A stretch of DNA of 64,000 bases, taken from an uncultured Planctomycetales bacterium (lineage in GTDB: Bacteria; Omnitrophota; Gorgyraeia; Gygaellales; Profunditerraquicolaceae). Where the stretch lies: positions 272,352 through 336,351 of the forward strand of contig CAZYCL010000002.1 in assembly GCA_964645795.1 (NCBI GenBank), given 5' to 3'. Shown here piece after piece: positions 9,701 through 30,700 of this stretch. The notes beneath the pieces were generated by a model that saw only the letters and a list, made by a program, of their open reading frames with translations, did not search any database and was not told the origin of the DNA. Within the stretch, counting starts at the first letter, position 1. The number at the start of each line of letters is the position of its first letter. Made by a program: the position numbers and the translations under genes.

Positions 9701-12700
9701 TCGCAGCCGACAGGAGAAACGGAAGAAGCTGCTGCTTCCCCCAGATTAACCCTGCCCGGGGCAAGAATACGCCCCAGTTGACTAGCGATATCGGTCAAAC
9801 TTTTGCTAAAAAGAGGAGATTCTTTCTCGAAAGTGGCCCAAAATCCGGAATCTGTCTGCCTTACGGATTGGATGACCCTGCGTAAAATCAGCGCCCCTTC
9901 GGGCAAAGAAGCAAAGCTTCTCAATAAAGTAAATATGAGCTGGTTGCGCCGCAGACAGCCTTCCAGCTCTAAAACATCATCCCAGCCGCTGACGGCTCCG
10001 CTATCCTTCATTTTTTCAAGTAACGATACGGCCGACAGGCAGCGATACGATAAAGGATTAAATAACTGGGCTTCCTTTACAAAGCGGCATAAGTCGCAGG
10101 ATGAATCCTGCTTCAGATGAAAATGGTCTGCCTGATGGATAATCGCGCTTATATCCTTTAGCAAAGAATAATCACCGATAAGATGCAGGCTGTTCATTAA
10201 AAGCATTGTCTCCAGCAGAGCGTCACCTTTGCCGTTAGAGTAAAACATGCGTCTGGCAAGCTGATCAGCTATAGGCTCCCTTTCTGCGTCCCATTTGTTT
10301 GCGGGTTCTTCGGATATATTCAGGCCGTCAAAACTCTTGTCTGCCCTGTCCAACAGGTCAAATGCAAACAACGTGTTTAATAGCTCCCTGCCTCTTAGGA
10401 CGCCATTGTTACCCGGACCGATATAGAACCGTAGCGCCTGAGAAGCCGCTTTTTCGGAGTCTTCTTCATTCACGACAACAGCCGGAACTCCGCCCTGATC
10501 CATATAAACCGCTACTGTTTTCGATGCCCCTTCGCCAAGATGATAAACCAGCTCTTCGATTCCTGTATTAAGAGTTATTCCGTTTTTCTCTGAAACGCGT
10601 ATGCCTTTTATCACCAGGTCCGGACCAAACTCATCCAAAAGCCAAGTCAAAGACGGCAATGATCCTTGGCAGTCAAAAACTAAGGCACCCTTCTTGTATA
10701 CGCGTATGCGCGGGTCCTGGATGACAACCGCTTCCTTGAGCGGTTCTTTGTGGTTTATGTGACGATCCCGGTTAACAGCGGCGCCAGGCTTGATTACTCT
10801 GTCATTGGCAACCCCCTTGTACTGCAGTGCCCAAGCATACTGAAGATCGGGATTTCTTGCCTTTGCGGTGCCGGTCAATCTGCGAGCCCGTACAACTCTA
10901 TTGCCCGTCTTATCATGCCTATTATTGCCTTTCTGGCCTGACTTATTATTTTTCTTGATTTCTGCCCTGATGCGGAGCTTATCTTCCCTGACGCGGAGCT
11001 TCTCTTCTTTAAGCTTTTCCCGCATCTCGTCTTTCGCCTTTCTCTTAAGCCTGGAGGCTGCCTGCGTATAATGCTTTTCAAACCTCCTTAAAACCGCTTG
11101 TTTTTGGATATAGCGAGCTATGCTTTCAACCCTGTAATTTATAAGCTGCTTGGTGGGAATAAGGTATTTTTTAATGCCCGCAGCTTTCAGTATTACGCTT
11201 ACCTCCTTTGCCTTTCTGAGCAAGTTTACCGGATCGGCGTAATGCTTGCCTTCTTGACGGTACTGCTTCGGAAAGGAATTGTAGTCGACGCCGAACTCGA
11301 TCAACCCTTCTATGGCCTGACGAACCTGCAATGCCTTCTTCTCTTCCTGGCGGAGTCTCTGCTGTTTCTTTTTCTTTAAATATTTTATTGCTGCGGCTAC
11401 GGTATGCCTCCTTAGCAAGGTAATGGTAATCTCATTCTTATCCAGATCATACCCCTCTATCCGTTTTTCAAGCTCGTCTCTTTTGCTGCATAAAGCCCAG
11501 GCGGATATATGGTCCTTGAAACAGGATGATACTTTGTCGAAATCTATGGCGTAAACATCCAAAAGCCTCTTTTTTGCGGCCTGCTGCCGGCATAAATCTT
11601 CTTCGATCCTTGCGATAGCCGCTGTGATCATTTTTACATGTGCATGCGCAGAGTACTTTAAAAGCGTATTCGTTGAAACCTTGTAATCACCAAGGCCTTC
11701 CTTCTCCAGCTCCGCCTGTAATCGCACTCTCTTCTCCAGCAGCCCTAGGGGGCTGATATAATACTTGCCGCCTATGCGCCGGTAAAATCCCGGTATAGCG
11801 TAATAATCAATACCGAATTCTTTGAGCGCCCGCACGACAGCGCTGTTATCATTGCCCACCGGTGAACTGATGAAGCAGCCGGGCCTGTGATAAACTTCCA
11901 CTCCGGCAGGCAGGTTCCCATTGATCACTCTCTCTAATTTGCGGAAGGTTAAAGAGACCTGCTGTTCCGGGGCGTTGGTAATGATGACCTGGGCATCGTC
12001 TTTCATCTCAGCCAGGAGCTTATCTTCCAATCTGTATTCCGAAAACGACCCGCTTTTCGTGTATAAAATAAAGTCTGTCTTGCGCAGGCTCACATTTTCG
12101 CCTAAGAAGTCCAGACAAAATATTTCGATCCTGCCGACCAAATTCTCCCAGCCTGCTTCTTGCCTAAGCCGCCGGATGATGGAGTGATTGTCTTCGACCA
12201 GGTCTATGTCACCCTCTAAGCCTACTGCGCGCTTTGCCCCAAAAGCTGCGACCATCGCCAACTCCAGACCTTGACCGCTACCGAGGCTAAATACAGTCTT
12301 TCCGCTGATATCAATAGCGTTAAAAACCCTAAGGAATTGTTCAAAAGCGGTGGCCTTAAAATGTCCGTAGGAGGTGATCTTCCCGGAGCCGCTGGTTAAG
12401 GTCAATTCTTCCGTGCCTAAATAATTATTGGCATAACCGCTATCGCCATAATATTTTCTCAAAGTTGACAATAAGGTCGCCCTTTGGCTGACATATGGAA
12501 AACCCACCGGCGAGCTGGAAAGCCTGGATTGCAATCTGGAAATCCCGCATGCCGCGCCGGCCACTGAACAGGTAAAACCGGCAACGGAAAGAACTATCAA
12601 CAACAGGCCTTTCCGGGCAAAATCACCTGCCCTTGCATCCATTAATGTGCCGTCGGGATTGAACCTATACAGGGCCAGCTCATTCTCCTTTATAACGTTG

Positions 12701-15700
12701 ACGTATCTATCCTCTGTGATACCCACATAAATATAGTTTTCATAAAATGGGTATTCAAACACCAGCTTGAATTCTTCTTCAAGTATAGGCACAAGGATAG
12801 CCCTAAGGAGAGCGTCTTTGGTATAGAATGCGTTGACAACCAAACCGGCTGGCTCCAAACCCTTGGATCTCAGGATTTCCGCCATATTCTTGACCAGCGT
12901 TGATAATTGATCCGCACGCATCCTGCCGCTATCCGCAGTATTAGGGCTGATATGGGCAAGGATCACCGAATTAACCGCCGCATTATTCATGCCTTTCATG
13001 ACCAAGGCAATACATCTATCAAACATGATGCGGTCGGTCTTTATCGCTGTGAGTTCCGGCACTATAAACATCCGGTCTTCTTCCACGAGCCCGCCAATAC
13101 CCCAAGGCCTCTTGTTCTCATCCAAAAGATCGTAACCTTGAGCAAAAACCGGATTAGATAACAATAGTGCATACAGTAATATTACCAGCCGCAAGGCCGC
13201 TTTAAGACCCGGTACCGGAGAACTGGCGCCGGAGTCGACCAGGAATATTTCGGGATTCCTTTCGATGGGGCCTAAAAGCTCATGATAAAGGAGCTCTTGC
13301 TGTTCTATGGGGAATAATTCGAAGAAGTAAGGATTTATTCGGAGAGTCCTGGCATTGATATCGCCTAAGGCGATACCTCCTTTAGTGGAGTGTAAATCGG
13401 TGGTAATAACAAGCGACCTATCGGATATCTGGGGAGGGGCGTGGCCGAAGAATGCCTTAAGCTCTTCCAGCCGTTTGCTTAAGATGCCCTGGTGCTCCTT
13501 GTAAATAAAGCCTTCCGGTCCGGTTATTAAAATAAGGTCGCTGACCGCAGCTTGGGCCAGGAGCCGGTTAATACCATACTTTTCTTCCATATTTTTCTGC
13601 TCTTCAAGCGGTACATAGAGCGGGTGTTCGTTGGCTTTATTAAGACTATTCTTACGCCTGCAGAATAACTCATAGTTGACGTGATTATAACGCACCAGGT
13701 CCCTGATCCCGTTAGGCAGCGGATCGCCAGGCCCGCCTATCAGATAAGATAAGATATTATAGACATCGTCTCTTCCAAAATGAAGGTAGTAATCCACGTT
13801 TTCAAGGTCTTGGACGGACGATTTGTTGCCGAGGACCAGCCGCACAATGGCGGCAATAGGATCATTCTCGTTAACGCTGCCTTCCTCTTCTACAAAACGG
13901 ACAAAAGATAACAGGTCCTCCCATTTTAAGTCCTTGAACGCCTCTGCCGTGCGCAGGTTAAACCAGGATATGTGCCGCATAAGGGCTTCGCTGGAATACT
14001 TATCTGTGTTATTTGCCTGAAGGGAATTAAGATAAAAATCAGTTATCGCCTTCTGGAGCCGGTCAAATGCTTGCTGTTCGGCAAGCTTGAAGAACTCGCA
14101 GTAGAGCTCACTGGCATCGCTTACCGGCAAACACAGCATCTTAACCGCATCAACACCTTGTTGCGATGACTGCAGGACTTGCTTGCCTTTAGCAATGAAA
14201 TCCTTACGCACGTGCTCAAATGCATATACCACCATCCGCGGCTCCAACGGCAAAATAACCTTTAAGCAGTTAGCGCAAGGGCGAAGCGTGACATAAAAAA
14301 TCCCGCCCTTAAAGGGATTGCCGGATAAAGATAGTATCCTTTTAAACAAGGCCACTCCTTCAAAAGAATCAAACAGCTTATCTTTCTGGATTATACGCTC
14401 TAACTGCAGCAGGCCCTCTTTGTATTCGAGGCTATCTTCCGGCCTGACATTTGAGGCGAGCTTATTCAGGATATCAAATACCAGCCTGATCTCTGCGTGG
14501 GAGTGCGTGCCAACGGTGTTGACTTGCGAGCCTGCGTATCGCCCTTCTGAATCATAGAACGAAGCGGCAACGGTTGCCGGCGGGAATGACGTTATTTTAG
14601 ACTTAGCCCAAAGGACCAATGAACGCAGTATCATTATCTGATGTTTATATCCGGGCTGGCCGGTATTCCTGCGGCCCTTAACCGGCGAGCTGAATTTGCG
14701 CATTACTTTTACTGTTGTCGGATGGTGGAACCTGTATCCCCAGTCGATGTCGTCATCGTCGTAAGGGCTCGGGCAGTATTCAAATCTGTAAGAATACGAA
14801 TAATTTCCCGTTATATGGCGATAATCATATGGCCTTAGCGCTTTAGCAAATGCATTCCTATAACCTAACGGCAACCATTCATTATCTACCGTATAACCTT
14901 TTGCCTTTAAAATGGGCGTCATATATTTAGAGTCCAGATTATTTAATAATAAATATTGTCCGGGATCGATGGTATTTTCAAGCGTATCGATATATTCGGA
15001 TAACAGCTTGATATGCTTCTTTTCTACCATTTTTCCGTGCAGATAAGAAAAGGCATATTCAATTAAACCTTTGCATAACACAGTTGCTCTTCCTGTCTTT
15101 ATAAAATCATTTATCAGTCCGGCTAGCGCTTCTTTATCATTGATCTCGGAGTTTGTATACAGGAGAGGTTCTTTCCCGATAGGCTGCCCTACTTCCCTTT
15201 CCATGAAACCAAACATGGCCTTTCCGCCCTCATTGTCCCTATTGAGGTAGGCTGCCGGGGCATACAAGGAAACAAAACCGTCCACTCCCGCCGCCGGATA
15301 GATCACTGTCTGGCGCTCAAATACCCTGCCGAGCCACAAAAGCCTGTATACTGCCCCGGTAAAAGGAATGATCCTTCCAGGATTGCCATCGCGGCTGTCT
15401 CCCAAACGCATTATGCTCATAACTGATTCCAAATCATCGCTTGGAAAAGATTTGCTTTTTTGAATCGGTGAACCGGCTTCGGCGACAAACCTTGTTTTAG
15501 CTTCGCTAACCGCGCGCCTTGGATTAATTACCCTGAAATCATAGCCTGCAAGGATATCAGCGGTCTCCTGTATGATCTTAATCGCCTCATCTTTGGTCAG
15601 GGCGGGATTTACGGCGAACATCTCAAGCAACACGCCCGCCACCTGCGGAGCGGCAAAGCATGTCGCCTGTCTGTAACGCTTCTCTCTCTTGTGCATACCC

Positions 15701-18700
15701 GCACCGGAATACGCAACGGCGGCTATGTCAACGTATGAACCGTAGTTGCTGCAGCCTGTTTTTGTGTATCGACCCGAATCATACTTCACGCTGGCCACGG
15801 ACAAAACAAAATCATAGGCTGCCGGATATACGGGATATCCGTTGTTGCCGTTTCCCGCCGGAGCAACCAAAATCAGCGTATGCGGATATCGGCTGAACAG
15901 CTGCGAAAGGGATTTTTCAAACGAGTAAAAATCGAGGTAAGAACCGAAGTTCATGTTTACGATGAGCTTCTTGCCGCAAGCGAGCTTTTCTTCTATTTCT
16001 TGGAGGGCATCGGAATACTTGATATAACTGATGCGGCGCCCCTTTTTGTTATCCTCTACGTCAATCACGTTTACGCCGGTTTGACCGGTCCAAAGGTACA
16101 ATACACTTAAGGCGATGTCGCTGTGTTTAAGGCCGGCCCTTACGCCAGAGCGGTGATTGCTATCCAAAAGATACGCCTCCCAGCCGCTCCCTGTATCACT
16201 GCCCCGCTCTTGGGGGAATGCTTTTTGAATAGCAAGAAACACCGCTGCGGCAAAGAAGAAACAGAATACCCTGCTTTTAACAATCGGAGAGCTTATGCCG
16301 TGAATGATCACTAAGGCTCCTACCGGGCTGGAGCCGGCATCTTTGAAAAATCCTCCTGAGGGCGATAAACCCCAAGCTGTAAACAACCTCTCTCTTCCCG
16401 GACAACCGTCCTTGCCGCCGCAATCCAGCAAACAGGCCAAACATTTAATCGGAGATTTGGCTATAGTGTCGAGCCCCTCTACATCTGCGTATCTTCTTAA
16501 GCCATTAGCCCGGTCGGGCTTGACACATTTGATGAACCTGCCGTCCGGCAGAAGATAAAGCTTATCTTGATCCTGAGAGACAAACCTGGATTGCTTTATG
16601 AGCCCGCAATCGACAACTAACTGGTCGAAAAGCTGCTGCGCCCTTCCGCATAAATCCAGGATGCGCTTATCGACATGAACGTCGCCTCTCCTGCTAAACT
16701 TGTTGATCAGGCTCACCAAGGCCGCAGGGTCGTCTTTACGCCTGAAGGAGAAAGGCAGCAAAAGTACGTCTACGTAGCGGTAACCTTTGACTAAAGTAAT
16801 TATATCTTCGATGATATCGCGGTAACCACCCAAACCGACCTTGCGCATCCATGCGCTGGGGGCGATGCTGATATTCAGCGTATCCAGTACTCTTATCTGC
16901 AGTAATTTTAATAGAGCGCGCATACCTACGGAATCAGAGGCGAATCCCGAAGTATATAATGTATAGGCGTAGGACTCATTGCCCTTTATCTGCATTATCA
17001 TATCCGCGCAGTCCCTATCGTAAACAAAATCGTAATAATCCCTGAGTATGTCGCTTTTAAGTATATCTATGCCGTATGCGTAAACGCTCAAAACCCAGAC
17101 CCATGGTATAGAATTTATGTTTATAATCGTTGCGGCATCGCAATGGTCGCACTGAGTAGAGCAGCCCCAAACAGGGACTAAAGTGTAATCGTTGACCTTG
17201 GAACTCAAAAAGGTATCTTGCCTTGCCCCTTCCAGCAAAGATACGAAGTATTCTGCCTTTGGATATAGCAGCGCATTCAGGCTGTTTCTGTTTATTAACT
17301 GCCTGCAGCCGGCCACAAACTTAACCCCTGCTTCGGTAAGTGGCGCCTGGTAATGCTCTATCATATTTATTTTTGCGTAAATGGCCCTCTCAAGGAATCC
17401 CCTGAAATCCAAGAACCCGTCCGGACCGCTGATATTGACCACCTTAAGCCCGTGATTGATTGCCGCCAGGTCCCTTATAAATCCCTGGTAATCAAAAAAC
17501 TTCCTGGACCAATCTACTTCTAAAGATGAATAATCCCCTCCCTTCCATCTAATGATTGCTTCCTGCGCCAGGTCTTCGATTAACGGCGAACTGGCGTCTT
17601 CGGATAAAAACAGGCTAAGCGTAAAAGAAAAGAGGTCTTCTTTATCCTGCTGGACGGAGAACGGCAACTCTTCTTCGTCATAAAACAACGGCCTATACTG
17701 GTAAACGATAGCCCTCTCACCGAGACTGCCAAGGTAAAAACCCGCATCAAGAATCTGGGAAAAATCTTCAGCATCAAGCGAGTATACAAAAGCAGTAAAC
17801 TCCCTGAACATGATCTTTGAGCCATCCGGGTAGCTTTCTTTTATGAAGCCGACGGGCGCTGGCTCGCCATGCCCCTGATCGCCATAATAGTAACCGCAGA
17901 TGTAGAACTTGCCTTCTCCGAAGTTTCCGGTCAATTTGTCGAGGAAATCATTCAAATCCTTATCCATATTGGCCACGGGCGAAATAAACAGCTTTATCTC
18001 GCAGGCGCGAAGCAAACCCTCTTCATCCTCCGTAAAACTCACCTCTTTTAATATCCTGTCCACGCGAAAGCGCAATTCTACCGGCGAACTGGCGTCCTTT
18101 GAGACTACCGGCGTGAATCTTGGTTCGCATAAAGGAAGCGTTATTGGCAGGCCGAGCTTGAGGAAATGGCTGTTAAGGAACCTTTTGATATCCGGGTGGT
18201 CCTGTATGGCCTTGATTAACCATACGATTTCAGCTTCCGGGTCAAGCCTCTTGGTATAGGGATAACCCTCTAAGTCTTGAGCAAAAGCCTCATACTCCTC
18301 TTCCGTAACGTAACAAATCTCTGTTCTGCCTTCAAGGTAGAGCGAAAGGCCGTAGATATTCGCGAATATCTCGCTGAACCCCGCTTTCCTTATCGAAGAG
18401 AAGCTTATCAGGATCATATTGAGCTTATCCTCATCCGCATCCAGAAAGACCTTAATTTGTTCAAAGGTCAGGGAAGAATTGAATATGCCGTTCAGGGATA
18501 GCTGGGCATCAAGGAAACCATCGACACTGCGGGTATCTATGTAATTATATTTATACCAGACGTCCTTTATGGGATTATTGTAATCACAGCAGTAATAGAT
18601 AAGGATATCGAAAAACCGAGAAAAAAGCTCTTCATCGCCGCTGTTTAATATCATGGTGAACAGCGAATCTGTCTCTTGGGCAAAAAGATCCCCTTTCTCA

Positions 18701-21700
18701 TGCATCTGGAAATGCTTCGCCTCTAAGGCGTGCACGGCCTCATGCGCAAGGAAGAATGCGCAGTAAGAACTTTCGAAAGAGTATATCGTCTCATCGTCAG
18801 GATCATAGAACGCCGCCAGGATCCCGGTCTTCTTCTCCTCACATAGCTTAACCCAGTCCTTGGCGCCGGAAATCGCCTTGACCTTGATCCCGTTTTGTCT
18901 TAAGACGTCAAGCAAGAGCTGCATAAGCCCGGGCTCAATCTCGATACAGTTTAGCCGGACCTCTTCCTGCGCGAAAGAAATCTGGGCGCTTGCCCCGGAA
19001 GCCGATATGCCGAACATGAATACGGGAAGCAATATAGGTATGAAATTACGGATGAAACTCTTCGGTAAGCTTGCCGGAGAGCTCGATTGCCTGGTATTTA
19101 CGAAACTGTATAAACGCAAGATCCCCGGCGCCTTCATTATGCGCGACTCCACATCATCGCTAAACTCCGGCAAGTTACCGCGCAATAAATGCTGGCTCGC
19201 CAGGTAATCCTGGTAGAGGCTAATAACATTCAACTCTTCTTGCAAGAAATCAATCCGATCAAAATCAATACTGTTGTATAGTTTTTTGCTTAACTCCAAT
19301 ATCCTGGATTGATCCAACCGGCCCTCTTTCTTTTTCCGGAAATAATCCCCGGCCATAACAAAGAAGGCGCCCGTGGCTTCCACCAGCCTCTGCTTCTTAA
19401 GAAATACATCGTAAGGCCCTGTCACAACAGTCCGTTCATGCTCGGGATCAAACTGGTCATAAGAACCGTCAATGCCAAAAAGCCTTTCGCCAGCTTGACT
19501 GCATATAGCCAGCCAGTAATGAATTGAGGCAAGATCATGATCGCGAAGATAATGCAGGCCGAGTATGACCTGACAATAATGACTTTTTGAGGGAATATAC
19601 GAGAGGCCGAACTCATCAAACAAAATGAGCGCCAGCAGCTTGGAGGTTATCTTGCAGTATTTAGTCTTTAGTTCGGGGGCAAGGAGTCTTGCCTCTTCAA
19701 GGGCATTGAAGAAAACCGCAGCGAAATCCTTTGAAGCTATAAAACCGAGCGCCTTTTCAAGACGCGCTACTGAAGCCGGCGAGCTGGATTCAAGGCTCAG
19801 GCGATAATACTTCTGCGCCTCATCAATCCTGCCCGCTGCATTATGGCAGATGCAAAGATTCTTATAAACCTCTCTGCCAAGGTCCGGCCTTAATACTGCT
19901 GCCTTCTCCAAGACCTCTATCGCCTCTTCCGTGCGCTCCAAACATATCAAAGCGCTTCCTAAGTTAAGATGCGCTACGGGGTTTTCTTTATCTATGCCGA
20001 TGATCCTCTCAAAAACAGCCTTTGCTTCCCGGGCAAACCCCTCCCTCACTAGCATTACTCCTATGTTATTCAACACGGGCAAGGAGAACCCGCCGGGAGC
20101 ATCCTGCAGCCGCATATCTTTATAATAAAGGTTCAAGCACGCCTTGGCTGCGGCCTTTCCCCATCCCAACTCTGAAATCAACATAAGCACAAGCTCTGGA
20201 AGCCTGCTTAGCTTGCCCTGTTTAAGAGAAATATAGCTTGGCCCTAAGTGAAAATACTCCCTAATATCCACGCTTAATACCTTACGTAATGACAAGTCTA
20301 CGATATGCAGATAATTACCTGCCTTGATAACCGGGAACACATGGTCTTTAAGGGAAGCTGCCTTGGGATAAAAGCCTAAGAGGGAAAGGATGATATAGGA
20401 GTGCAGGGCGGTTGCGGCGTTATCTTGCTGCCAATCCGCTGCCCTCTCCCTGTCAAAGAGGTCGGAATCACGCAGGATCTCGGAGATCATGCCTGCGGCC
20501 AGGCCTTCTGTCAGGACTGTCCGGATGTTTTCCCGGTATAACAGTCTTCCCTTACGTCTGACCACGCATCCTGGATCGACTATTTTTCGGTTTAACAACT
20601 TTTTAAAGAAAGCGTTGAGCGCTCTGGGACCTGCTTTTGAACGGGCCTCCTGTGCCTGCTTGGAAAGCTTATTCCAATCTACTTTTTCGAATGTTTTAAT
20701 GATCTCTTCGGATAGCTGCACAAGCCTCGACTCGGGGAACCCCAGGCTCATAAGCACTTGCCGTAAATCTAACCTATTAAGCGGTGAGCTTATCGCATCC
20801 GCGCTCTTAACGAAGCTATCGGCCTTATAAATCCTGAAAATATCCGAGAGGTGGTCGCCGGTAAAGTAATTCAGCTCTACCATCTCAGAGCGCCATCCAT
20901 AGGGCAAGTTATTTTGCAGCTTATCCTGCGTCCATAAGCTGGCCGCCTGCGTTATGCCGGCAAGGACAAACGCGCTTGAGTTGTCTTTGGCTACTTCGGG
21001 CAGGCCGGAGAGGATCTTTTTATTGACCCTGAAACCATCTCCCGAGTAGCTGATACAGGCAGATGGAGAAACCTGCTTGCCAGATATGATGGGATTATTG
21101 GCAACCAGCGCATCGAATCTTATGCCCAGGTCCTCTATCGCGTCATAAACATCGCTCTTTAATACCAACCAGCGTCCGGGATAATCAAACCTCTCAAGAT
21201 TGTAAACCGAAGTCTTTACCGCTTCATCGCAGTTATCCAGGCCTATAACGTACCTGGCGCCTGCCTTAAGCAGGGCCATCGTCAATACCCCGCTGCCGCT
21301 GCCGACATCCAGGACTGTCTTATCCATAAAATAACCTGCCCAGCTCTTATGATGCAGTATCAGCCAGAGGAACTTACGGGTAGTAGAGTTAATAGGTATG
21401 CAGACATCCTCCCTTATCCTGACCCACTCTCCCAGCTCCTGCACATAAATACTGCGGTACGGGTTAAGCGGCGAGCTTGAGCGCAGGAGCTGCGAAGAGA
21501 AGTTGACGATGATCTCCCTTGTATCTTCGTCAACATAGTTAGGGATTATTGCCGAAACATCCCTGTTCCACGGACGGTAAACATCGACCGCAAACTCCCA
21601 GGGCCCTTTATTTTCTTTTGCGGGAAGCACGGTTTCTCCGCTCTTGACTGCCAGATCCTGGGCGTCCTGGTCCATGCGGGTGCACTCCGATATGGCAAAG

Positions 21701-24700
21701 CGCACAAACCCCGCGTGGACCTCGCTGTATTTATTAAGGCGGCCGTTCATGATATTCCTGGCAATGTCCAGGTAAAAACTTTTCTCCAGCTTAAGTTTAT
21801 TGATAGATTCAAGATCGAATATCGTTGTCTTTAAAACCATGAACGGCTCGCCCTTAACTTCAAGGAAGTAATACTGCCCGGCAGCCGGAATTTGGCTGTT
21901 TATTGCCTGATCAAGAAGCTTGCCTGCCGTAAGCCCGGACCAGGGAAATATGCGTTCATTCAGGCCCACTGCCTTAAAAACGCAGAAATAAGGGTTTGTG
22001 AAAAACTTGCGCTCTTCTTTGCTTAACAGTTCTTTCTTATTACTGAAACGCACCCTGGCTTGTAATGGCGAGCTGACATTCGGATCAAACATTTTCCTGA
22101 ACCTGCGCAGACCCTTATCCTTCCAGAAATTCTGGGACAAATACCTGCATATTATCGCGTTTAGAACCTGGGACGTATGTTCCGGCCCGTCAACCAGCAC
22201 AGACTTCATGCCTGCTGCCTTGGCCGGATATACGTCGTAATCATAGTTGTTGCCGATACAAAGTATCTCATGCGGCTTTAGCCCCATCATCTCAATACTC
22301 AACTCAAATGCCATAGGAGAAGGCTTAAGCGCATCTTTTAACTCATCCGCAGTAACCAGGAAGTCCAATGACTTGACAAACCCCAGGATCGTTAATATCT
22401 TTCTTGCCTGGTAGCGGTGATTGTTGGTCAGAACTCCCAGCTTTATCCTCCCCTTTAAAAAGCCGAGCTGCCTTTCGATCCCTTTATCTCTTTTTATGTA
22501 TTTACGCAGGTCAATCCTGTTGATTTGCGCCTGTGAAAGCCTGCGGAACTCACGCCGGTCCACCCCCAGCTTAACCCCGGTTTCTTCCAGGGTAAGATGC
22601 CTGTCGCTATCCCACATTGTTTCTCTTATCAATTTTCTTACCACGCGGATTTCTTTGCCCAGCAGACGGGCTATAGTGATACTCCTGGCGTTATAATATG
22701 CGCCTCTTAGCGTATTTAAATTGTTAGAAACCGGGATAGTTGGGTCATAAAGGGTGCCGTCTAAATCGAATATTATCCCTTTGACGCTGCAGTTACCAAG
22801 CGCGCTATAATCAACCGGCGAGCTCAAAGCGGAATTTGATTTATTTTGGCGGAAGCTCATTATTAACCGGAAAAGGCGCTCTATGGGAAAGTCTTCGCTT
22901 AAATCTTCAAGCAGAATATCTATGCCGTGCGGATCAATGCGCCAGGCCCTTGCCAGATCAAAGATGACCTTGTCTTGAAAGCTCTGGGCGCCGAGAAAAC
23001 TGTCTTCATCCTGCTTAAACCTGTTTTCGTTAAGCCAGAGCTTCTCTTGGAGGATCATCCGGAATTTTACCCTCGTTTCGGCCTCTTCCAGGTAGTCCTC
23101 TATTTGCCTGCGCATCTTAGGATGTAAATAATCAAAACCTTTGAGATTGGCGATAGGGCTGTGTTTTAATATCGCTACCGGCTGGCCGCTCCCAAGCGGC
23201 ATCCCCATATAGTAGTATCGGCCCTGGCCCTGGCTGCCTAAAAGCTGGTCCAAAAATACCCTTTTATTCTCATCCAGCTCCACCAGGGGGGTTATCAGGA
23301 TGCTTGCTCCGATCGGATAAGGATAATTATTATTTGAGCGGAAGAAGAGGTTTATCTTTTGAGTAAACTGCTGGGCCGGAGAGCTTGCGCTTTCTTTGCT
23401 GCTTTCACGGATTATTTTAGCCAGATCAAGGGGCCTGGAAGCAAGAGGCACGCCAAAGCTCTGCATTATCATATCAATTGCCGCATCATATGCCCTTGAA
23501 CTATCCGTCGTTATCAGCGCCGCCTTTAATGCTGCCCCTGCCAGCATATTCTGATACACATAATCCTGAGGCGACTCGGTATTAAAGGCCTTTCGCATGA
23601 GACGCTGAAAATAATTGTACCTTTCTTTAAAATACTTAGGCGTAATCTTTTGCGAATACGCACGCAAACCCTTCAGATCCAAGCTGCCTTCGTGGCTGAC
23701 AAAAGCCTCTCCTGCCCTAATGTTGTCGATGTCCAGCGGGTGCAGCCCAAACAGGTTCTCGCGGTTGGGATGAAGGATATTAAAATAGCTTAAAAGCGCT
23801 ATGAGCCCTACTGCCTGATTGCAAAAATCACCGTTTTTCTCATTGACCTTTAAAACGCAGGCGCTCAAGCTATGCCCTTCTTCATGGGCGGCGGTTTCAA
23901 AAACACGCTTAAGCTCCATCCCGACCTTCACGGAAATGATATGGTCCGGGCTTTGCTGAAAGCTTCCTGACCTGAAATAATACGATGGTTCAAGCCAAGA
24001 GATAGCAGCAGAAAAGAAAGCCCCGCCGCGCTTATAAACCTCGGTACGCCACTCTAACCATTGGTCGTGCTCGATGTAACGGCTAAGCAGCCTCTGGACC
24101 GCTTCTCTTGCTTCCGTAATAATCAAATCCTCGCTGTGATTAAGGAAAAGGGAGAGGCGGCTGTTTTTGACAAAGCGATGGATATACACCCATTGCCCGT
24201 TCTTATAAGTTTCGACCACCCTGAATAGATCTTCAAGATCTATCCTTTGCAGCCTTACCCATCTCCTGACCGCCTCAATCTCCAAACAAAGACCCAAGGA
24301 GTCGAATTTTCTGACCTTACCCAGTATCAGCTTATATAAATCCTGCTTAGTCCCAAGATCAGGGGCATCAAATAACTCAATAAGCCTGTTATACAGATGC
24401 GCGGCCCTGCCTTCATTACAGAGCCCAACCGGATTTCTGATTACTAAATACCGGCGTAAATCCTGTTGCTGGATGACATAAACATGCCCGTGGCCGGCAT
24501 AACGCTCCTTTACCCAGGCAACAAATTCTCTTTCTTCCTTATCCGCCTGCGGCTGCCATATGGGCGAGCTGCCCTGCCGCACGCTGCTGCCGATTATCGA
24601 TAGGATCCCGCTAAGCGTTACCGTCTTGCCCAATATAGGGATAGCCTTTAACCAAGCGCGCCTTGATATCTTCCGGCGCAGCTCCTTCTGGGCTGCCTGG

Positions 24701-27700
24701 GAGACATAGCTTAAAATCAGGTCTATTTTCTCTTTATTCAGGATTACCAGCGCTTCATTTTCATTTGCCGCATTCAATACAATAAAGCCCCTGTGTCTAA
24801 GTATCTGCGGGATATCCGCGCCATTGCCTATTACCAATATCTTCCGGGTCCCCCGCGTGCCGACTAAAGCCCCTGATGCTAACGGCGAGCTGGAAAAACC
24901 TTCGATCTGGCTAAACCGCAAGGCAACAAGTTCTCCGGCCTTCTCAACCTTATACTCAAAATGCAGATGAGCCAGCTTTCTGCGGGCGTTCGTCCCGGTC
25001 CTGCCTGATAAACCTATTATCTGCCCTTTTGAAACAATATCTGACGCCTTCACATTGAGGCTGTTTAAATGCGCGTAATAACTATAGCTTGAAAATACGG
25101 GGTTATATATGAGCAGGCCGTTGCCGGCTTTTTCACCGAAGCCGCTACCTGCGCTCCAGGAGCCATTCTCATACTTCCAACAGTCCCCGCAGGATGCGAC
25201 CACCCCGCCGCAAAAAGCGGCTACGGGGGTATTTTCATCGATAAATATGTCGTAGGCTTCGTGGTCGGTGCCCGGACGAAATGACCTTTCTGAGTATTTG
25301 CCGGTATTTTCTGCAAAAAACCAGCTAAATTCTTTTACCGTCCTTCTGACGCACTCCTTGGCCTGGTAATCAAAAAACCCGCTAAAGGCTTCCTGCTGTT
25401 TCTTGCGCCATTGCTGCAAAAAGAGATATTCATGGATATTGCCGAAATCATTGTTTATGAAGTAATCTTTGCCGAAGTAAGAAAGCTTTATCTTAAGCTG
25501 GTTTTCCGCAGAAAATATCTCTTCCTTATCAAAATACGGAAAATCGAAGTGGGTCTCTGCTGCGCTGTCCGACAACCTTATCGGGACAAGCAGGCTTAAG
25601 GATGCCAGGGTAGACTTTATTAAAAATATCCTGCGGCTTACCGGCGAGCTGGAGACGGATGGATAATTGACGTTCTCAAGCCAAGAAAATGCCTTGCCGT
25701 TAATGAAATATATGAGCTTGACCGACTTTACCGGGAATCGCGCCGGGATAATGATCTCTTTCTTATTATAGATACCTACGGCCTCGGCAAAGGCATTGAC
25801 GATCTGCCCTTTCTTATAGACTACCAGCCCTTCGCCCGGATTAGTGATCATGGCGAACGTTAACAACGCCCGGTCGCTCAAAACAGAACTCCACATGTAG
25901 ACGCCTTTATCATCTATCTTGGCGGACAAGGGCATATCGGCAGGCATGTCGTATAATGCGTCCTCCGGAACCACCCAGACAAATTTTATTTTCTTGGACA
26001 ATAACTTTTCCAAAAACTCTCCCTGGATCTCTGCTTTTTCCCATGCGATCTTCTCCTGCGTCCTCTTGTCGCCGGCTAACTCGGGGCCGTTCTTGAAATT
26101 CTTATCGTTAAATTTGCCGTCCGAAGCAAAGATGAAAACAGTGCTGTCCGGGAAATCATCCATAAGCTCGTTTATCGTCTTCAATGCCTTCCAGCCGTAA
26201 GTATATCCGCCCGCAGGCTGCCTGAGCGCTTGCAGGATCCGGTCGAAATCGTATTCTGTTGTGACTTTAGAGTTAAAGAATGTGGCTGCGATGATATTGT
26301 CTCTTTCCCGCATCTTCTCAAGGAGCTCTTCCATATCCGAGAACCAATTCAGGTTGCAAACACTGGAGCTGTTGTCGATGCCAAAGAAGAAATTGCGGCG
26401 GATAGTCTCCATCTGCAGCGGATAGCTAAAGTCTGCGTACGAAACCACCACCCGGACCGAATCGATATCTTTGCGGCCATTGAAGATATCCCCCAAAAAC
26501 AGGGTATCTGGGCGGTGAGGCGTTGATCTTGCCTGCTGCCTGCGAATGACCGCGTCGCCGAAGTCGATAAAGATGGTCCTGTTCTGCTGTGGCATGACGA
26601 CCTGGGCGGGAAGGAAGTTGGATTCCTTGAGGAAAGAAGTAAAGGCATTGCCTATGCCGTCTATTTTGGCGAATTTATAGTGGATCTTGGGGTTCTTTGC
26701 CTCCTGCACGCGCCTGATGATATACTCATCGGCCAGGCTCCTGATATTGCTCTGTTCGGAGTTCTGAGTGGCGAATATCACATGCGTATTTGTCTTCTCA
26801 AGCTTAGCTGTCATCTCTTCAAAAAGCGGCCTTAAATCTTCTATCTCTACTATCGCATTTCCGTCTGAGGCGGTATCCTGCTGGAAATCTCCCGAGGCGC
26901 AGATTATCACCTTCGGAGTAAGCCGGCCGTCATCCATCGCCTGCATGGTATTGATGAGCGACTCTACTATATAGGAAGCGCCGTTTCCTTTCCGGGCGAA
27001 CTTTTCCTGCTTAAAATAATTCCTGGCCGCAGCCATTGAGTAGGAACACGTCTTGGGGTCAGGTTCGGTCACCGTGCCGATCCAAAGGTTGGGCATTTTC
27101 GGATACCTGCCCTGGATATAAGGTATGATCTCGTTTGTAAACTGCCTGGATTGCTCTGCCATGGAACAGGCGCTGGTGCTCCCGGACTCATCGGCTATTA
27201 TGGCGATCCTGGGGGTGACGATCTCCCCGGAGGGGATCAAAGTCACTATGTCATCGGGTTTACGGATCTTGATGATCGTGGGTTCAGAGTGCTGTATCTT
27301 TAAGGCGCCTTGCGCCGCATCGTAATAATATAGAAGGGGGAGGTCAAGCCCGGCCGAAGGATTAATCTTGCTTGTCCCCTGCCCTGCGGCACTGGTTGTA
27401 AACGCCCAAAATGCGCCTGCCAGCAAAACTGACACCGCTGCCTTTATGCGGTTAACCGGCGAACTAATTGAGCCCTGCGCTTGTTCGGCCTCCGGCCTGA
27501 AATTTGAATCAAAGACCCTGGCTGCGATCCGCTCTACGGCTTTATTACGCAGCTCAAGACAGGCGATCCCGCGATCTAATATATCTTTTAAGTGCTCAAG
27601 CCTCTGATCGAGCTTTTGGGCCATAAGGGCAACTCGCTCATCTATGAAATTCTCCAGCCTTATCGCTATCTCATTTTCCAGCGAAGCCAGGTAAGCGCCT

Positions 27701-30700
27701 TCCGGAAAAATTTCGGCCTCTTCAAACAGCCTCATCGCAACCTCGGTATCCTCAAACGCCTCTTTTTGGGTAAGGTTGTTCCTGGTTGTACTGCTGATAA
27801 ACAGGAAATAAAGGATTTTAAACTGCAGGGCAGAATGCAGGAGGAAGAAACCGGCATGGAGGTAGCGCAGATTTCCTTCAGGGTAATAAACGGCGTAACT
27901 GCCGCCTGGGGCTTCAAGGAGTGTGCCGATCTGAAGATACGACTGGCCAGGTTGTGGAGGAGAGCGTCCAGCCAGACGCTTGAGCTCTTCCAGCCCCCGG
28001 CGCATAAGGCCAAAATGCTCCTGACTATAAAAATTTTCCCTTCCGCCAAGCTCTAATCCTCGCATCCTGATATCTGCCAGGATCGCATCCTTGCCGAAGC
28101 GCTCCTGTGTCTTTGCGTACACGCTTGCAGGCACCGGTAAAGGATAAACAACAATAGGAGACGAGCCTGCCTTGGCCTTAGAATAAAACTTGTATTTATC
28201 CAAGACAAGGTCTACCGGCTCAATGGCTTCTTTTAACCTCTTCTCCAGCCCGCTCAACTTGACGCAAGAGGTGACCCAGTCAAAAGAAACTCCTTTCGGA
28301 CGGTGCGCGCTATAGCGGTCGAGGTAAGGAACAATCAATCTTATCTGGAGCAGGCATTTATCGGCGAGGTAGCTTAACCACTTCAAATCCCTGATGAACA
28401 ACTCAAGCTCTTCCGCCCTAGCCTTCTCTAACAGGGCTCTCAGGTCATGGGAACCCTGCGAGGCCCTTAAGACTTCTTTGACCCTTGCGCTTAAAATAGC
28501 AGAGATGTCGGCGTGCATGCCGGAAAGCTTTTCTACGATAACTTTGTTCTTTTTCAGCCCCGAATAGATCTTGGCTGACATTATCCTGATTTTTTCCAGC
28601 TCACTAACGACATCGCCGGAAACCAGCATAATATTTGAGTAAAAAGATTCGAGCCTCGGCTCAAAGCCTCTCTCTCTTAGCATCGCCATCCTGAATTTTT
28701 CTATCGGCGAACTGGCAGTAAAACCTGTACCTGGGTTACGGCGGGCCTCGATCAAGGGCCTGATAAAATCGTCATTAATATCCGGTTGGCAGAATAAGAA
28801 CCTTTCCAGCTCAAAACAGTAAAAACGGTTAATATATCCGTTTAATACCTGTGTCTTCTTGAATAACTTTCGCAGCTTCCGGATGTTCTTTTCGCAATCA
28901 ACTAACAAAATAGGTCTGCGGCCGAGCTTTATATCAAAGGCAATCCCGATAAAGGTAAGGATATTCCTGAATGAAGCCAGGGAGTACACCTTAAACGTTA
29001 ACCTTTTAGAGATAATACGGTCATTTACAAGCTTCTTTTGATAATTCAATATGGCTTCGGTTATTTCAACGCTTTTATCTTCCAAGTCAAACGAAGGCGG
29101 CTGCTGTGCGGAAAATTCCGCTTCCTGGAGCCTGCGCCTGACCGACATGAGCAGTGCTACTTTACGATAATTATAGCCCCACAGCCCGGCAAAGGTTATG
29201 GCGCTGCCGACATGCATGGGTACGAGCGTAAAGAAGAACATCCCAAAAGGTATGCGTAATGCCGGGTACCTTCGATTAAAATAAATAAGTACCCCCAGCC
29301 TTACAAAGCCGGCGAGGAATATCAAGACAAACGCCCCGGCCAGCGTCAAAATCGTCTTCTCGGTAATAGCCGTTTTTAAAATATGGCTGCTGGAAAATAT
29401 CCCGCTAAGAAACGAAAATAGCCCGAAGTACTGGAATGCCACCGAAAATCCCTCTATCGTCAATAATATGCCGGTCAGCTGCCATAATGCCTTGCGTAAT
29501 CTCGCGGAGACGATATTGCTCTCGTGTCCTTGGCCGCCTGCTTGAGCGATTACGGGAGAACTGCCGCGTTTAAGGATGGCGGAGTAAAAATCGACGAACT
29601 TATAAAGCTCTTCTTTCGCGCCCTTCTCCTGGAGCTTTGTCCTCTCTATGAGATCGAAAAACTGTTTTCTTCTTTTTGCGATACGGCCCTCCGGCGTCAG
29701 ATTTTTTCCGTTTTTCGCGCCTTTATCTTTCGTGATTACCGGAGAGCTGCCTGGAACGCCGTCAGTAAGGCGCGGGAAACGCAAGACAAAATCGCCGTTT
29801 TCATTATTTTCATCCATCTTCAACGCGATAGCAACAGGCTCAATGCTAAAACCCCTGACAGCGATTAATCGCGGCAAAGAATCAGTGGGCTTGAACATAT
29901 CCTGAGCCTCCTGCCAGCAATGGTGAAACAGCATGTTGTTGTTGTCCATGCAAATATTATCCAGGCGCAGCCTTATCAGCTCTTTCAGGTAGACGCTGCC
30001 CCCATGAATATCTTTGATGCTGCGGCCACCGCAGGCAAGAGACTGCGATAATGAGGCCTTGGCTGATTCCTGAACGACAGGCTCCGCTATCTCTTCAACC
30101 ATCACCTGGCCTTGCTTAAGTATTGCCAGAGGAACTGCATCAGTTTTGCTAAAGAAGACTCCGAATACGCTATAATTACCCTCTGCTTTGCTGCCAATAG
30201 CCGCGTCTACTATGCCGGCTTCGGTTTTATCGAAGTCGATCCTGGCTTTAAAGATCAATAGTCCGCAGTCTGCGGGAAAAGGCCAGATCCTGGAATGGGG
30301 TGAACGCAGATCAAAACGCATGTTGACGGTCCTGCCGGAAACAATAGCGATATCCGCTTTTGAAACCGGCGAGCTGCCAAAAGAGCGGCGGACTTCAATA
30401 TATCCGTTCTCACCCCATCTGCCGGCCCAACTGCCGCAGGAGCAGACCGTAAACCACCAGGTGCCGGGCTGGTCTGTTTTAAGCTTGGCTTCGAAGAGCT
30501 TTATCCCCTGCGCTTCTCTTACCTTCTCCATCGCAACCAATCTATTCGAACCGCTGAAATTACCGCTGTAAATCTCCGGTAAATTTGTATAAAGCAAAGC
30601 TTTGTCCTCGGCCCCCTTCACCCAGGCCCGGATAACAAACTCTTCTCCAATGCTAACAATCAGCTTTTCGCCCGATGCGACATCGGGCGATGTCTTTATG

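Follow-up and report, generated by a model that had tools for sequence, protein, structure and literature searches.

Ser-Ser-Pro joints between gene-sized modules of a giant Omnitrophota open reading frame, and peptidase-like modules that look like its cargo

The window, by which we mean the whole 64,000-nucleotide stretch of DNA analysed, lies wholly within a giant gene (>64 kb) of an Omnitrophota bacterium and is part of a 'multi-enzyme' ORF. The gene fuses at least about 70 modules of gene-like size in frame, each corresponding to one whole ordinary protein. Exactly at the module boundaries sits a short Ser-Ser-Pro-aliphatic (SSP) joint, which has the behaviour of a recognition site read at the protein level. 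We consider it somewhat better than an even bet (probability about 0.55) that one polypeptide is cut at or near the joints by a joint-recognising endopeptidase, with the peptidase-like modules as cargo.

A chain of complete proteins in one reading frame

The giant ORF described in the initial annotation is real. It spans 1..63999 on the minus strand, a single unbroken frame of 21,333 codons that extends past both ends of the window. Read from window position 63999, this frame has no stop (0 / 21,333 codons), against about 770 to 1,590 in each of the other five frames. A Pfam search of the window placed unrelated housekeeping domains all in this single minus-strand frame. The nearest relatives of the ORF are Candidatus Omnitrophota contigs.

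The chain includes an ECF-type sigma factor, a receiver domain, PFK, Rpe/RpiB and HAD, together with an MraZ-like match (20.4 bits) under the Pfam cut-off of 23. The ECF-type sigma-70 module m55 (8488..9672, minus strand; region 4 at aa 18240-18289) would have to be a free protein in order to work. The response-regulator receiver module m23 (38695..39822, minus strand) starts 8 residues past a joint. The earlier view of the ORF as a chain of complete, unrelated proteins, sigma factor and receiver among them, is borne out, and there are no stops, SD-like sites or ATGs at the joints. Another Omnitrophota contig, L007, encodes PFK, receiver and Rpe in the order seen in the window, each as a normal gene of its own. 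Module order varies among relatives: RpiB and HAD are adjacent in P0017 and 4,000 residues apart in the window ORF, and module 27, found downstream of RpiB in the window ORF, has its L001 homologue upstream of Rpe.

The ORF resembles the 'multi-enzyme metabolic cluster' class of giant ORFs from Omnitrophota (Velamenicoccia/Gorgyraeia; West-Roberts et al. 2023, 10.1101/2023.11.21.568195) in its continuous frame of >20,000 codons, its Omnitrophota relatives and its low annotated-domain density (16%). It also shares that class's Pfam repertoire, namely starch synthase GT5, GT1, receiver, methyltransferases, HAD, HD, glycolytic enzymes and peptidases. The papers on Omnitrophota giant ORFs (that study; Nielsen and Lui 2026, 10.64898/2026.06.07.730766; Seymour et al. 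2023, PMC10066038) cover domains, repeats and membrane topology, and state that the cleavage points are unknown. They contain no mention of a recurrent joint motif or of modules as whole proteins, and a literature search found no paper containing both 'Omnitrophota' and 'polyprotein'.

The SSP joint marks module boundaries

The S-S-P-V/A site pointed out earlier is much too frequent for chance. The ORF contains 64 copies of SSP[VLIAM], where 1.43 are expected from shuffles (highest of 1000 shuffles, 7); the motif is found in the ORF frame only and has a gene-like median spacing of 251 aa. Although Pfam domains cover 16% of ORF residues, none of the 67 joints falls within one (P = 8e-6). The DUF3856, PFK, receiver, GH77, HAD and AKR domains start 8-18 residues past a joint, RpiB ends 3 residues ahead of one, and joints are followed immediately by natural protein N-termini, one of them a Tat-like signal. 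Position +2 of the joint is depleted of Leu/Phe/Trp/Tyr (3 vs 13.9 expected). Tandem joints such as SSPVSSPV and mini-modules of 4-17 residues are present, and some boundaries have no joint (the direct Rpe-RpiB fusion; mannitol dehydrogenase to a HAD-like module).

The interval that the initial annotation singled out for its peptidases (14692-25641, ORF residues 12787-16436) is bounded exactly by the joints at aa 12784 and aa 16437. It opens with SSPV at aa 12784-12787 (25639..25650, minus strand) and closes with SSPV at aa 16437-16440 (14680..14691, minus strand). Within it, thirteen further SSP[VLIA] joints (16282..24891, minus strand; aa 13037, 13144, 13539, 13726, 13976, 14175, 14404, 14739, 14973, 15304, 15470, 15890 and 15903) mark off HAD, methyltransferase, TPR and unannotated modules.

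In the low-GC part of the window, and also in the relative L125, each of the two Ser positions draws on both Ser codon families, which indicates selection on the amino acids. The window joints also show a nucleotide-level preference, C|AGY TCG CCG G, that pure protein-level selection leaves unexplained: 58% of joints have C as the wobble base just before them (26% overall), TCG reaches 46% vs 12%, AGY 76% vs 39% and CCG 67% vs 35%. An out-of-frame stop overlapping the +1 codon is present in 31 of the 67 joints (46%; 21.2 expected, p = 0.005).

Relatives carry different joints at homologous places. RpiB ends in RRIDKIDNV-SSPV in the window ORF and in RRIEKIDDNT-SLDNGG in P0017, and the joint ahead of HAD is likewise SSPV in the former and SLDNGG in the latter, while P0021 uses an SSS[S/P/A]-aliphatic joint 13 times. 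These differences point to lineage-specific protein-level recognition, most simply to polyprotein protease sites. The close relatives L127 and P0014 have decayed joints (ISPR, TLPV, AEPV) at homologous boundaries; together with the jointless boundaries of the window, these indicate that fusion without a joint is tolerated.

Peptidase-like modules of the chain

The subtilase-like module proposed earlier is m50 (14683..16284, minus strand), which combines an N-terminal hydrophobic anchor with a compact S8-like domain (aa 16008-16147; 15559-15978, minus strand) and, distinct from it, a C-terminal domain at module residues 303-531. Its assignment holds at family level (Pfam 33.7 bits, cut-off 21.8), but the domain is a compact form, with the match limited to profile positions 108-273 of 288, and has Cys for the catalytic Ser. 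YLLDSNHRSG (16144-16173) contains the putative Asp and His, only 3 residues apart, and PAGNGNN (15841-15861) the putative Asn. Where the catalytic Ser would be expected there is Cys16114 (codon TGC, 15658-15660); Ser is kept in the relatives of this domain and Cys is found only in the window ORF. The best NCBIfam name for the module is mycosin (43.4 bits against a family cut-off of 278.75), and its PatA/PatG match is negligible (13.6 bits). Like mycosin-like, membrane-anchored S8 subtilases, m50 has a predicted membrane anchor and extracytoplasmic catalytic domain; unlike them, it has an almost deleted Asp-His segment and a Cys nucleophile, and scores far below the cut-off. The compact S8 type also occurs in the Omnitrophota giant ORFs P0021, where it sits between two hydrophobic segments, and P0040, which has the module and no joint motif. 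The standalone protein P0024, also a relative, carries at its N terminus a signal with a lipobox-like Cys; hydrophobic segments follow at the C terminus.

Both M23 modules of the initial annotation are confirmed by Pfam. Module m37 (24883..25641, minus strand) combines a Tat-like signal, SRRIFLIK (25615-25638), with an M23a peptidase domain (aa 12912-13019; 24943-25266, minus strand; 55.3 bits, cut-off 28.7) that carries the zinc motifs HEAYD (25249-25263) and HLH (within 24952-24972); its NCBIfam matches to peptidoglycan metallopeptidases are all under their cut-offs. Module m65 (1672..2490, minus strand) has an M23b domain (aa 20576-20666; 2002-2274, minus strand; 42.3 bits) and no signal peptide. 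HLH is present in it, a search for HxxxD found none, and it may be a degenerate LytM-type domain. The CHAP-like amidase placed at 5812-6210 corresponds to m60 (5803..6210, minus strand; 136 aa, no signal peptide), a CHAP/NlpC-P60-like papain-fold candidate. Its GQC (6082-6102) and CHVGV (5926-5946) motifs supply a papain-type Cys/His pair, but its CHAP score of 21.2 bits (E 4e-4) is below the cut-off of 26; DUF7689 matches at 25 bits (cut-off 22.6). Pgp3, MepM and ShyA/C are the closest NCBIfam names of the M23/CHAP-type modules. M23 and CHAP are peptidoglycan-hydrolase families, whose targets are peptidoglycan cross-links and not proteins. Compared with known M23/LytM and CHAP/NlpC-P60 hydrolases, M23a shares the HxxxD and HxH zinc motifs and an export signal and the CHAP-like module the Cys and His motifs; M23b differs in lacking HxxxD, the CHAP-like module in its sub-threshold match, and all of them in being embedded in a giant ORF instead of forming separate genes.

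Two HExxH segments reported earlier are present close to where they had been placed, but neither module has a Pfam, NCBIfam or PDB family match. Module m39 (23377..24561, minus strand) has HEEGH at 23872-23886 and no signal peptide. Module m46 (18082..19074, minus strand) has a signal peptide, then HEAVHALEAKH (HExxH at 18730-18744), with His at motif positions 1, 5 and 11. Single-sequence AlphaFold models of m39 (pLDDT 34.9) and m46 (pLDDT 37.7) are too low for use; that of m46 places strand-strand-helix before the motif helix. Two HExxH in 21,333 aa, against 0.46 expected, are not significant alone. From its motif and signal, m46 may be a candidate secreted zincin.

In the M23a, HEAVH (m46) and S8-like (m50) modules, the joint is followed at once by a signal or Tat-like sequence. 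These modules are therefore predicted to act on the far side of the membrane, remote from the joints of the sigma factor and the receiver. In the signal-bearing pairs m36/m37 and m50/m52 (two modules apart), a crude hydropathy-based topology places no transmembrane segment between the members, so both cannot be oriented as signal peptides in one uncut chain. Homologues of the peptidase modules in the retrieved related giant ORFs were found only for the S8-like module. A search across the 21,333 residues for a cytoplasmic protease of matching specificity found none. With their export signals, cell-wall families, Ser-to-Cys change in the S8-like domain and lack of conservation among relatives, the peptidase modules look like cargo; the suggestion that they are the processing enzymes is not supported.

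Possible uses of the joint

The published interpretation of giant ORFs is of intact, membrane-anchored proteins with many transmembrane helices, and the chain could likewise remain one giant multi-enzyme protein in which SSP-aliphatic is a standard linker or gene-fusion scar. Ser/Pro-rich linkers are common, and the jointless fusions and decayed joints agree with this. We think it rather unlikely, because a linker or scar would not stay four specific residues through changes of codon family, nor be swapped for a fixed SLDNGG at homologous boundaries of another lineage. The Tat/Sec signals after joints and the consecutive signal-bearing modules also misfit one uncut chain, and the sigma factor, the receiver and the sub-threshold MraZ-like protein are hard to picture working while tethered in >21,000 residues. 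If the chain is cut, an encoded peptidase module could do it, as the initial annotation had supposed; the best candidate would be the S8-like module, possibly with its Cys as nucleophile. Viral 3C proteases have a Cys nucleophile on a serine-protease fold, and S8 and elastase-type enzymes take small-small-Pro-aliphatic substrates (AAPV/AAPL/AAPF), a textbook preference that SSP[VLIA] fits, as the Gly-Gly joint of P0017 would fit C39 peptidases. The S8-like score above the cut-off, the retained putative Asp, His and oxyanion Asn, the same compact type in P0021 (SSS-type joint) and P0040, and a CHAP-like module with a papain-type pair and no signal peptide all favour such self-processing, as does the description of S8 or C39 domains in giant ORFs by West-Roberts et al. 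2023, who put forward self-cleavage. We regard it as unlikely all the same. The S8-like domain follows an N-in hydrophobic anchor, and the P0024 and P0021 layouts also predict an extracytoplasmic location; the Ser-to-Cys change is confined to the window ORF, and the 3-residue Asp-His spacing is abnormal. P0021 was retrieved with an S8 query, so its co-occurrence of S8 and joint is biased, and P0040 has the one and not the other. The M23 and CHAP families, for their part, act on peptidoglycan cross-links.

The nucleotide preferences exceed what the amino acids need, and this, with the excess of out-of-frame stops, would fit punctuation at the level of RNA or ribosome, in which a 12-nt core (C-AGY-TCG-CCG-GT) directs mRNA cutting, stop-and-go or a frameshift to the out-of-frame stop. 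Against it, L125 and the window's low-GC part keep Ser-Ser-Pro with mixed codons and no preceding C, and more than half of the joints have no such stop. A search of the joints for SD-like sites, ATGs and special RNA structure found none, Rfam gave no family match, the +1 codons (GTA, GTT, CTT, GCN and others) are not start codons, and just 3-4 residues are conserved, unlike 2A-type skipping peptides; we consider this very improbable. The same uniformity of most window joints could reflect a DNA-level recombination site or microhomology for in-frame insertion, loss and shuffling of modules, which could coexist with cleavage. Boundaries that coincide with joints where module order differs (RpiB/HAD, the module-27 homologue), the tandem joints and the mini-modules agree with this. 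As the joint's main role it seems highly improbable to us: a 12-nt site alone explains neither amino-acid conservation through codon-family changes nor the exclusive use of one frame, and no recombinase is seen in the window.

Under the favoured reading of cleavage at the joints, translation most likely yields a single polypeptide, and we infer that a joint-recognising endopeptidase cuts it at the joints or just beside them. Our guess is that the cut would follow the aliphatic residue (P4-P1, S-S-P-aliphatic). No such enzyme was recognised among the modules seen in the window, and it may sit elsewhere in the ORF or genome. The M23a (Tat/Sec-exported, zinc motifs intact), HEAVH and membrane-anchored S8-like modules would most likely work outside the cytoplasm on cell-wall or prey material, and M23b and the CHAP-like module are also of cell-wall-hydrolase types. 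Published proteomics of giant ORFs covers the expression of a giant ORF and no more. Viewing the joints as candidate cleavage points seems to be new; the idea of self-processing is not, as cleavage of giant proteins by their S8 or C39 domains has already been proposed (West-Roberts et al. 2023, 10.1101/2023.11.21.568195).

Viral polyproteins (picornavirus 3C at Q|G; flavivirus NS3 with host signal peptidase; coronavirus PLpro at LxGG) likewise hold many mature proteins per ORF, with internal signal sequences and short junction motifs that vary by lineage, including a Gly-Gly type, here in P0017. The giant ORF differs in belonging to a cellular genome, with housekeeping metabolism and regulators as cargo in about 70 or more modules, and in having no cognate cytoplasmic protease recognised among the window modules and a cleavage that is deduced. 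Multi-core RiPP precursors (cyanobactin PatE with PatA/PatG; double-glycine leaders with C39) also flank their units with repeated short recognition sequences, and release them by S8 enzymes, some of which cleave on the C-terminal side of Pro, or by C39 after Gly-Gly. RiPP units are peptides of 6-10 residues, whereas those of the giant ORF are whole folded enzymes.

The frame and its modules

The minus-strand frame that begins at window position 63999 runs through 21,333 codons without a stop and is open at both ends; the remaining five frames contain about 770 to 1,590 stops each. Because the coding frame lacks a stop and runs off both ends, a Table-11 ORF listing shows no ORF of more than 170 aa within the window. 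Residue i of this ORF lies at window position 63999-3(i-1) downwards.

A Pfam scan of the entire frame found more than 20 distinct families, including GT5, GT1, Response_reg, Methyltransf_11, HAD_2 and HD. Central metabolism is represented by mannitol dehydrogenase, a LOG-family domain, aldose epimerase, a GT5 + GT1 starch synthase, PFK, ribulose-phosphate epimerase, RpiB (full length, profile positions 1-138 of 138), GH77 and aldo-keto reductase (AKR). The regulators are a receiver domain, an MraZ-like match (20.4 bits, under the cut-off of 23) and an ECF-type sigma-70 region 4. TPR blocks, several SAM methyltransferases, a HAD hydrolase and an HD match (24.0 bits, slightly under the cut-off of 27.2) are also present, and the peptidases comprise two M23 domains and one S8 domain.

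The closest relatives of the window are Candidatus Omnitrophota contigs. L001, a locus whose entire 4,085-nt contig is open in a single frame, shares 67% identity across the epimerase, and P0012 to P0014, annotated as partial proteins of Omnitrophota MAGs, share 53-56% across the PFK module. With an Omnitrophota giant multi-enzyme ORF defined as >10,000 uninterrupted codons tiled by many Pfam families, the window ORF belongs to this class by length, family count and relatives. Its domain repertoire is the same as that of the published 'multi-enzyme metabolic cluster' Omnitrophota giant proteins.

A short motif separates complete proteins

No tripeptide of the ORF is more over-represented than SSP, which occurs 67 times (15.5-fold enriched). 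In 64 cases the next residue is V, L, I, A or M, compared to 1.43 cases when residues are shuffled (at most 7 in 1000 shuffles) and 0-7 in the remaining five frames. This Ser-Ser-Pro-aliphatic motif, hereafter the joint, recurs at a median spacing of 251 residues (interquartile range 186-381); examples lie at window positions 25639-25650 and 14680-14691. Variant joints are CSPV, at aa 2497, 6396 and 21057, and SSAV, at aa 9143. None of 67 joints, the three CSPV variants included, falls within a Pfam domain, with such domains covering 16.1% of residues (P = 8e-6). The domain starts (profile positions 1-3) of DUF3856, PFK, receiver, GH77, HAD and AKR lie 8-18 residues downstream of a joint, and RpiB ends three residues ahead of a joint. 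Because joints lie outside Pfam domains and domain starts and ends lie close to them, the modules are whole proteins. The joint stands in place of the usual stop codon, spacer and start codon, and the ORF has the makeup of a polyprotein, that is, several complete proteins in one ORF with a conserved junction motif.

Leu, Phe, Trp and Tyr are depleted two residues after the Pro, at position +2 (3 vs 13.9 expected). This would fit a cut after the aliphatic residue that leaves a new N-terminus without destabilising residues, and could equally be explained by the ancestral composition of second residues.

The epimerase module (35347-36573, aa 9143-9551) opens with the variant SSAV, where its L001 homologue has SSPV, and its boundary with RpiB is a direct fusion with no joint (...ALTRK-SVIIGSDHGG...). 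Tandem joints or mini-modules of 4-17 residues are found at window positions 8476-8496, 16282-16332, 52897-52956 and 53716-53742; examples are SSPVSSPV, SSPRGISSPV and SSPVGALVIIHGISSPI. These could be leftovers of deleted modules or duplicated joints.

Joints differ between lineages

Comparison of joints among relatives is the most informative result. The Omnitrophota protein P0017 (GCA_028717025.1, JAQUOR010000019.1; 4,704 aa, one open frame in a 14,113-nt locus) carries [S/P]-[L/F]-D-N-G-G nine times, in varied codons, and is not enriched in SSP. The RpiB and HAD modules of the window have homologues in P0017, and there the SLDNGG-type motif flanks them precisely where the window has SSPV. 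At the RpiB end, P0017 reads ...RRIEKIDDNT-SLDNGG-NKRRLIVLDLDETLY and the window reads ...RRIDKIDNV-SSPV-KEPAAK. The N-termini of RpiB and HAD in P0017 begin directly behind its Gly-Gly joint.

In another Candidatus Omnitrophota protein, P0021 (MCF7892147.1, 6,428 aa), a third joint type, SSS[S/P/A]-aliphatic, recurs 13 times with the spacing of genes, and the SSP[VL] of the window is also used by P0013 (locus L125) and L001. No motif is enriched in L127 (JBAZQR010000001.1; 8,437 codons, open) or P0014 (2,093 codons), both 54-56% identical to the window over the PFK module. At their PFK-module boundaries these two have ISPR, TLPV and AEPV where the window has SSPV, and by sequence these look like decayed SSPV. 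Across the relatives, module order varies and boundaries remain at joints. In L007 (JBAZOA010000075.1, Candidatus Omnitrophota), PFK, two receivers and the epimerase are ordinary stand-alone genes, each with its own ATG and stop codon, and they follow one another as the matching window modules do. This arrangement hints that the giant ORF arose when neighbouring genes of one orientation fused in frame, or that the change went the other way.

The joint at the amino-acid and nucleotide levels

Over most of the window the joint DNA is strikingly uniform, C|AGY TCG CCG GTN. In the low-GC part (aa 3300-5650), the first Ser is TCN seven times and AGY six times, and both Ser and Pro codons at the joints are mixed. 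L125 uses both codon families at both Ser positions and does not retain the preceding C. A position weight matrix (PWM) of the DNA motif placed 74 of its top 110 matches in the ORF frame, including three CSPV and one SSAV, and its matches elsewhere were weak. A pure nucleotide motif was rejected, the strongest matches being almost confined to the ORF frame. The mixed Ser codons in the low-GC part and L125, together with the in-frame matches, point to selection on the amino acids of the joint.

Internal translation starts at joints were also rejected: SD-like sites are not enriched (16% vs 29% in controls), there is no nearby ATG, and RNA folding is not distinctive. An Rfam search of the window found no RNA element. 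Out-of-frame stops overlap the codon directly after the Pro (+1) at 31 of 67 joints, compared to 21.2 expected (p = 0.005). Examples are CCG GTA A, GTG A and CTT GA, and these stops may survive from an ancestral arrangement in which stop and start codons overlapped. Frameshifting onto hidden stops was rejected as a general mechanism, as the enrichment is modest and more than half of the joints have no such stop.

Peptidase modules

The initial annotation of the interval 14692-25641 (ORF residues 12787-16436) had proposed several peptidase modules of the giant ORF, some of them outside this interval, as candidate self-processing enzymes, with a speculative link to S-S-P-V/A. Its two M23/LytM peptidases are borne out. 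M23a (module m37, aa 12912-13019) and M23b (module m65, aa 20576-20666) score 55.3 and 42.3 bits, both above the Pfam cut-off of 28.7, and both contain HLH. M23a has both zinc motifs, HEAYD (HxxxD) and HLH (HxH), and thus looks active by sequence; M23b shows HLH and no HxxxD, and may therefore be a degenerate LytM domain. M23b is also without a signal peptide. NCBIfam names for the two are peptidoglycan endopeptidases of the Pgp3, MepM, ShyA/C and EnvC/NlpD type, and every score is far under its family cut-off. Directly behind its joint, m37 starts V-SRRIFLIK-STLASLSLLV, in which we take SRRIFLIK to read like a twin-arginine signal (presumed consensus S/T-R-R-x-F-L-K); the NCBIfam search matched no Tat model to this module. 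No homologues of m37-m39 were found at E <= 1e-3 in an index of 5.8-billion proteins.

The subtilase-like module (m50) is recognizable as S8 by its Pfam score (aa 16008-16147; 33.7 bits vs a cut-off of 21.8), over profile positions 108-273 of 288 only. Aligned with seven S8 proteins, it does not show the Asp-His-Ser triad in the usual order and spacing. Cys16114 (TGC) occupies the position of the catalytic Ser (QATCFAAP vs GTSFA[AS]P), and the putative Asp and His are merely 3 residues apart (LLDSNHRSG); the oxyanion Asn is kept (AGNGN). An exhaustive HMMER search placed the module in a compact S8 subgroup also present in the Omnitrophota giant ORFs P0021 and P0040 and in the small membrane proteins P0024 and P0028, all four of which, unlike the window module, retain Ser (GTS). 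At its N-terminus m50 has a strongly hydrophobic segment with Lys and Arg ahead of it, and P0024 has a lipoprotein-type signal as read from its sequence. The S8-like module is likely extracytoplasmic, as predicted from these sequences. Its C-terminal half (m50 residues 303-531) is a separate domain that P0020 and P0023 also have. In P0021, the compact S8-like module has an intact Ser and is flanked by two hydrophobic segments.

The remaining candidates stand at the level of motifs. The CHAP-like amidase (module m60) contains GQC and CHVGV, judged by eye, and scores 21.2 bits against a Pfam cut-off of 26 (E 4e-4). Pfam returned this sub-threshold CHAP match and a DUF7689 match and no more, and there was no match in PDB or NCBIfam. 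The two HExxH segments are HEEGH (m39, aa 13372) and HEAVHALEAKH (m46, aa 15086), the latter with His at motif positions 1, 5 and 11 and located after a signal peptide. Neither module matched Pfam, NCBIfam or PDB, and single-sequence AlphaFold2 models had pLDDT values of 34.9 and 37.7, too low for a fold search.

HExxH behind hydrophobic residues is enriched across all giant ORFs examined (9 observed vs about 1.5 expected). Apart from the two window sites, HExxH is found at aa 1081 of L001, aa 7224 and 8020 of L127, aa 1074 of P0014, aa 750 of P0015, aa 2383 of P0016 and aa 3219 of P0017. Those of L001 and P0016 lie in hydrophobic helices, like site-2 proteases. One HExxH protease family common to giant ORFs was rejected, since the segments have no detectable homology despite the enrichment. 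The conserved HE[IL]GA...H module of L127 and P0014 has no counterpart within the window.

Possible processing of the chain

We favor, with a probability of about 55%, a polyprotein cut at the joints by a protease outside the listed modules, with the peptidase modules as cargo. The joint is read as a protease site because it is fixed, selected as amino acids, present only between complete proteins and swapped in another lineage; by analogy, such a motif has the look of viral-polyprotein protease sites. A chain that is never cleaved is unlikely. Published proteomics indicate that a giant ORF is expressed, and nothing further. Against an intact chain, signals lie directly behind joints in m36, m37 (Tat-like), m46, m50 and m52, and hydropathy, a crude method, shows no transmembrane segment between the paired signals of m36/m37 (adjacent) or m50/m52 (with m51 between). 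Both members of a pair therefore cannot be N-in within one uncut chain. As read from sequence, the export signals and pair topology favor modules that become physically separate. The remaining probability is divided between punctuation at the RNA or ribosome level and a cassette site in the DNA; the uniform joint DNA would suit either, while the lack of SD, ATG, distinctive folding or an Rfam match, and the modest excess of out-of-frame stops, argue against punctuation in the RNA.

As for the enzyme that would cut a polyprotein at the joints, signal peptidase I has the specificity AxA. With Ile and Val frequent at -1 and Pro close to the scissile bond, it was judged unlikely as the joint protease. 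A-A-P-V/L/F peptides are classical substrates of subtilisins and elastases, and the S-S-P-aliphatic of the window resembles them. The x-G-G joint resembles C39 and deubiquitinase-type sites, which by analogy suggests a site of this type in P0017. Omnitrophota giant ORFs have been reported to carry S8 or C39 domains (West-Roberts et al. 2023, bioRxiv 10.1101/2023.11.21.568195). Such domains have been reported in the N-terminal region of giant ORFs. Because of these substrate likenesses and reported domains, the idea of self-processing stays alive in general form. The joint is SS[P/S]-aliphatic in the window's lineage and xLDNGG in another, and these types may have their partners among the S8 and C39 domains of giant ORFs. 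Self-processing by an encoded module is nevertheless quite unlikely in the window. The listed modules are poor candidates because they are exported or of cell-wall type, the S8-like one has Cys for Ser, and they are poorly conserved: other than the S8-like module, none is conserved among the relatives found. A search of the window for a cognate protease found only exported or degenerate peptidase modules. The listed modules are instead most likely cargo, by their sequences directed at cell wall or prey.

A broader proposal, which we put at somewhat below even odds, is that some Omnitrophota express dozens of ordinary proteins, housekeeping, regulatory and exported, as a virus-like polyprotein, with a dedicated protease cutting lineage-specific joints. 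If so, this would be a bacterial counterpart to viral polyprotein expression, a strategy not otherwise known in cellular organisms at such scale.

Relation to published giant ORFs

Omnitrophota giant multi-enzyme ORFs and a self-cleavage hypothesis for them are already published, and missing information on cleavage points blocked further analysis (West-Roberts et al. 2023, bioRxiv 10.1101/2023.11.21.568195). The literature examined on Omnitrophota giant ORFs makes no mention of a joint motif, and a literature search returned no paper pairing Omnitrophota with 'polyprotein'. For these reasons, the joints, their differences between lineages and the view of the ORF as whole proteins strung together appear to be new. 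Whether Omnitrophota giant proteins act as a single chain or as cut pieces is explicitly an open question, which the joints make directly testable by supplying exact candidate cleavage points, 67 in the window alone, with other lineages having their own motifs. They suggest that it is better to regard 'giant proteins' as normal proteins strung together. If this is true, giant ORFs could be split in silico for structure prediction, and predictions of localization and function would change, for instance for glycolytic enzymes predicted to be extracellular. The narrower practical message is that the listed peptidase modules are most likely cargo and that the processing enzyme is still to be sought.

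Other features of the window

Metagenome scans with the glycogen-synthase module gave no match, and those with an Rpe alignment gave distant ordinary Rpe genes and nothing else. All 2-kb bins show a negative GC skew on the plus strand, and the minus coding strand is uniformly G-rich across the 64 kb. At 48000-54000 (aa about 3300-5650), G+C is 0.39-0.41 compared to about 0.47, with more Leu at +1; this part of the ORF may differ from the rest in age or origin. Module m27 (33607-35346, aa 9552-10131), 580 residues long and without a Pfam match, is conserved in P0016 (E 1e-81), L001 and P0019, which makes it the most widely shared of the unannotated modules in this comparison, present in three other Omnitrophota giant ORFs.
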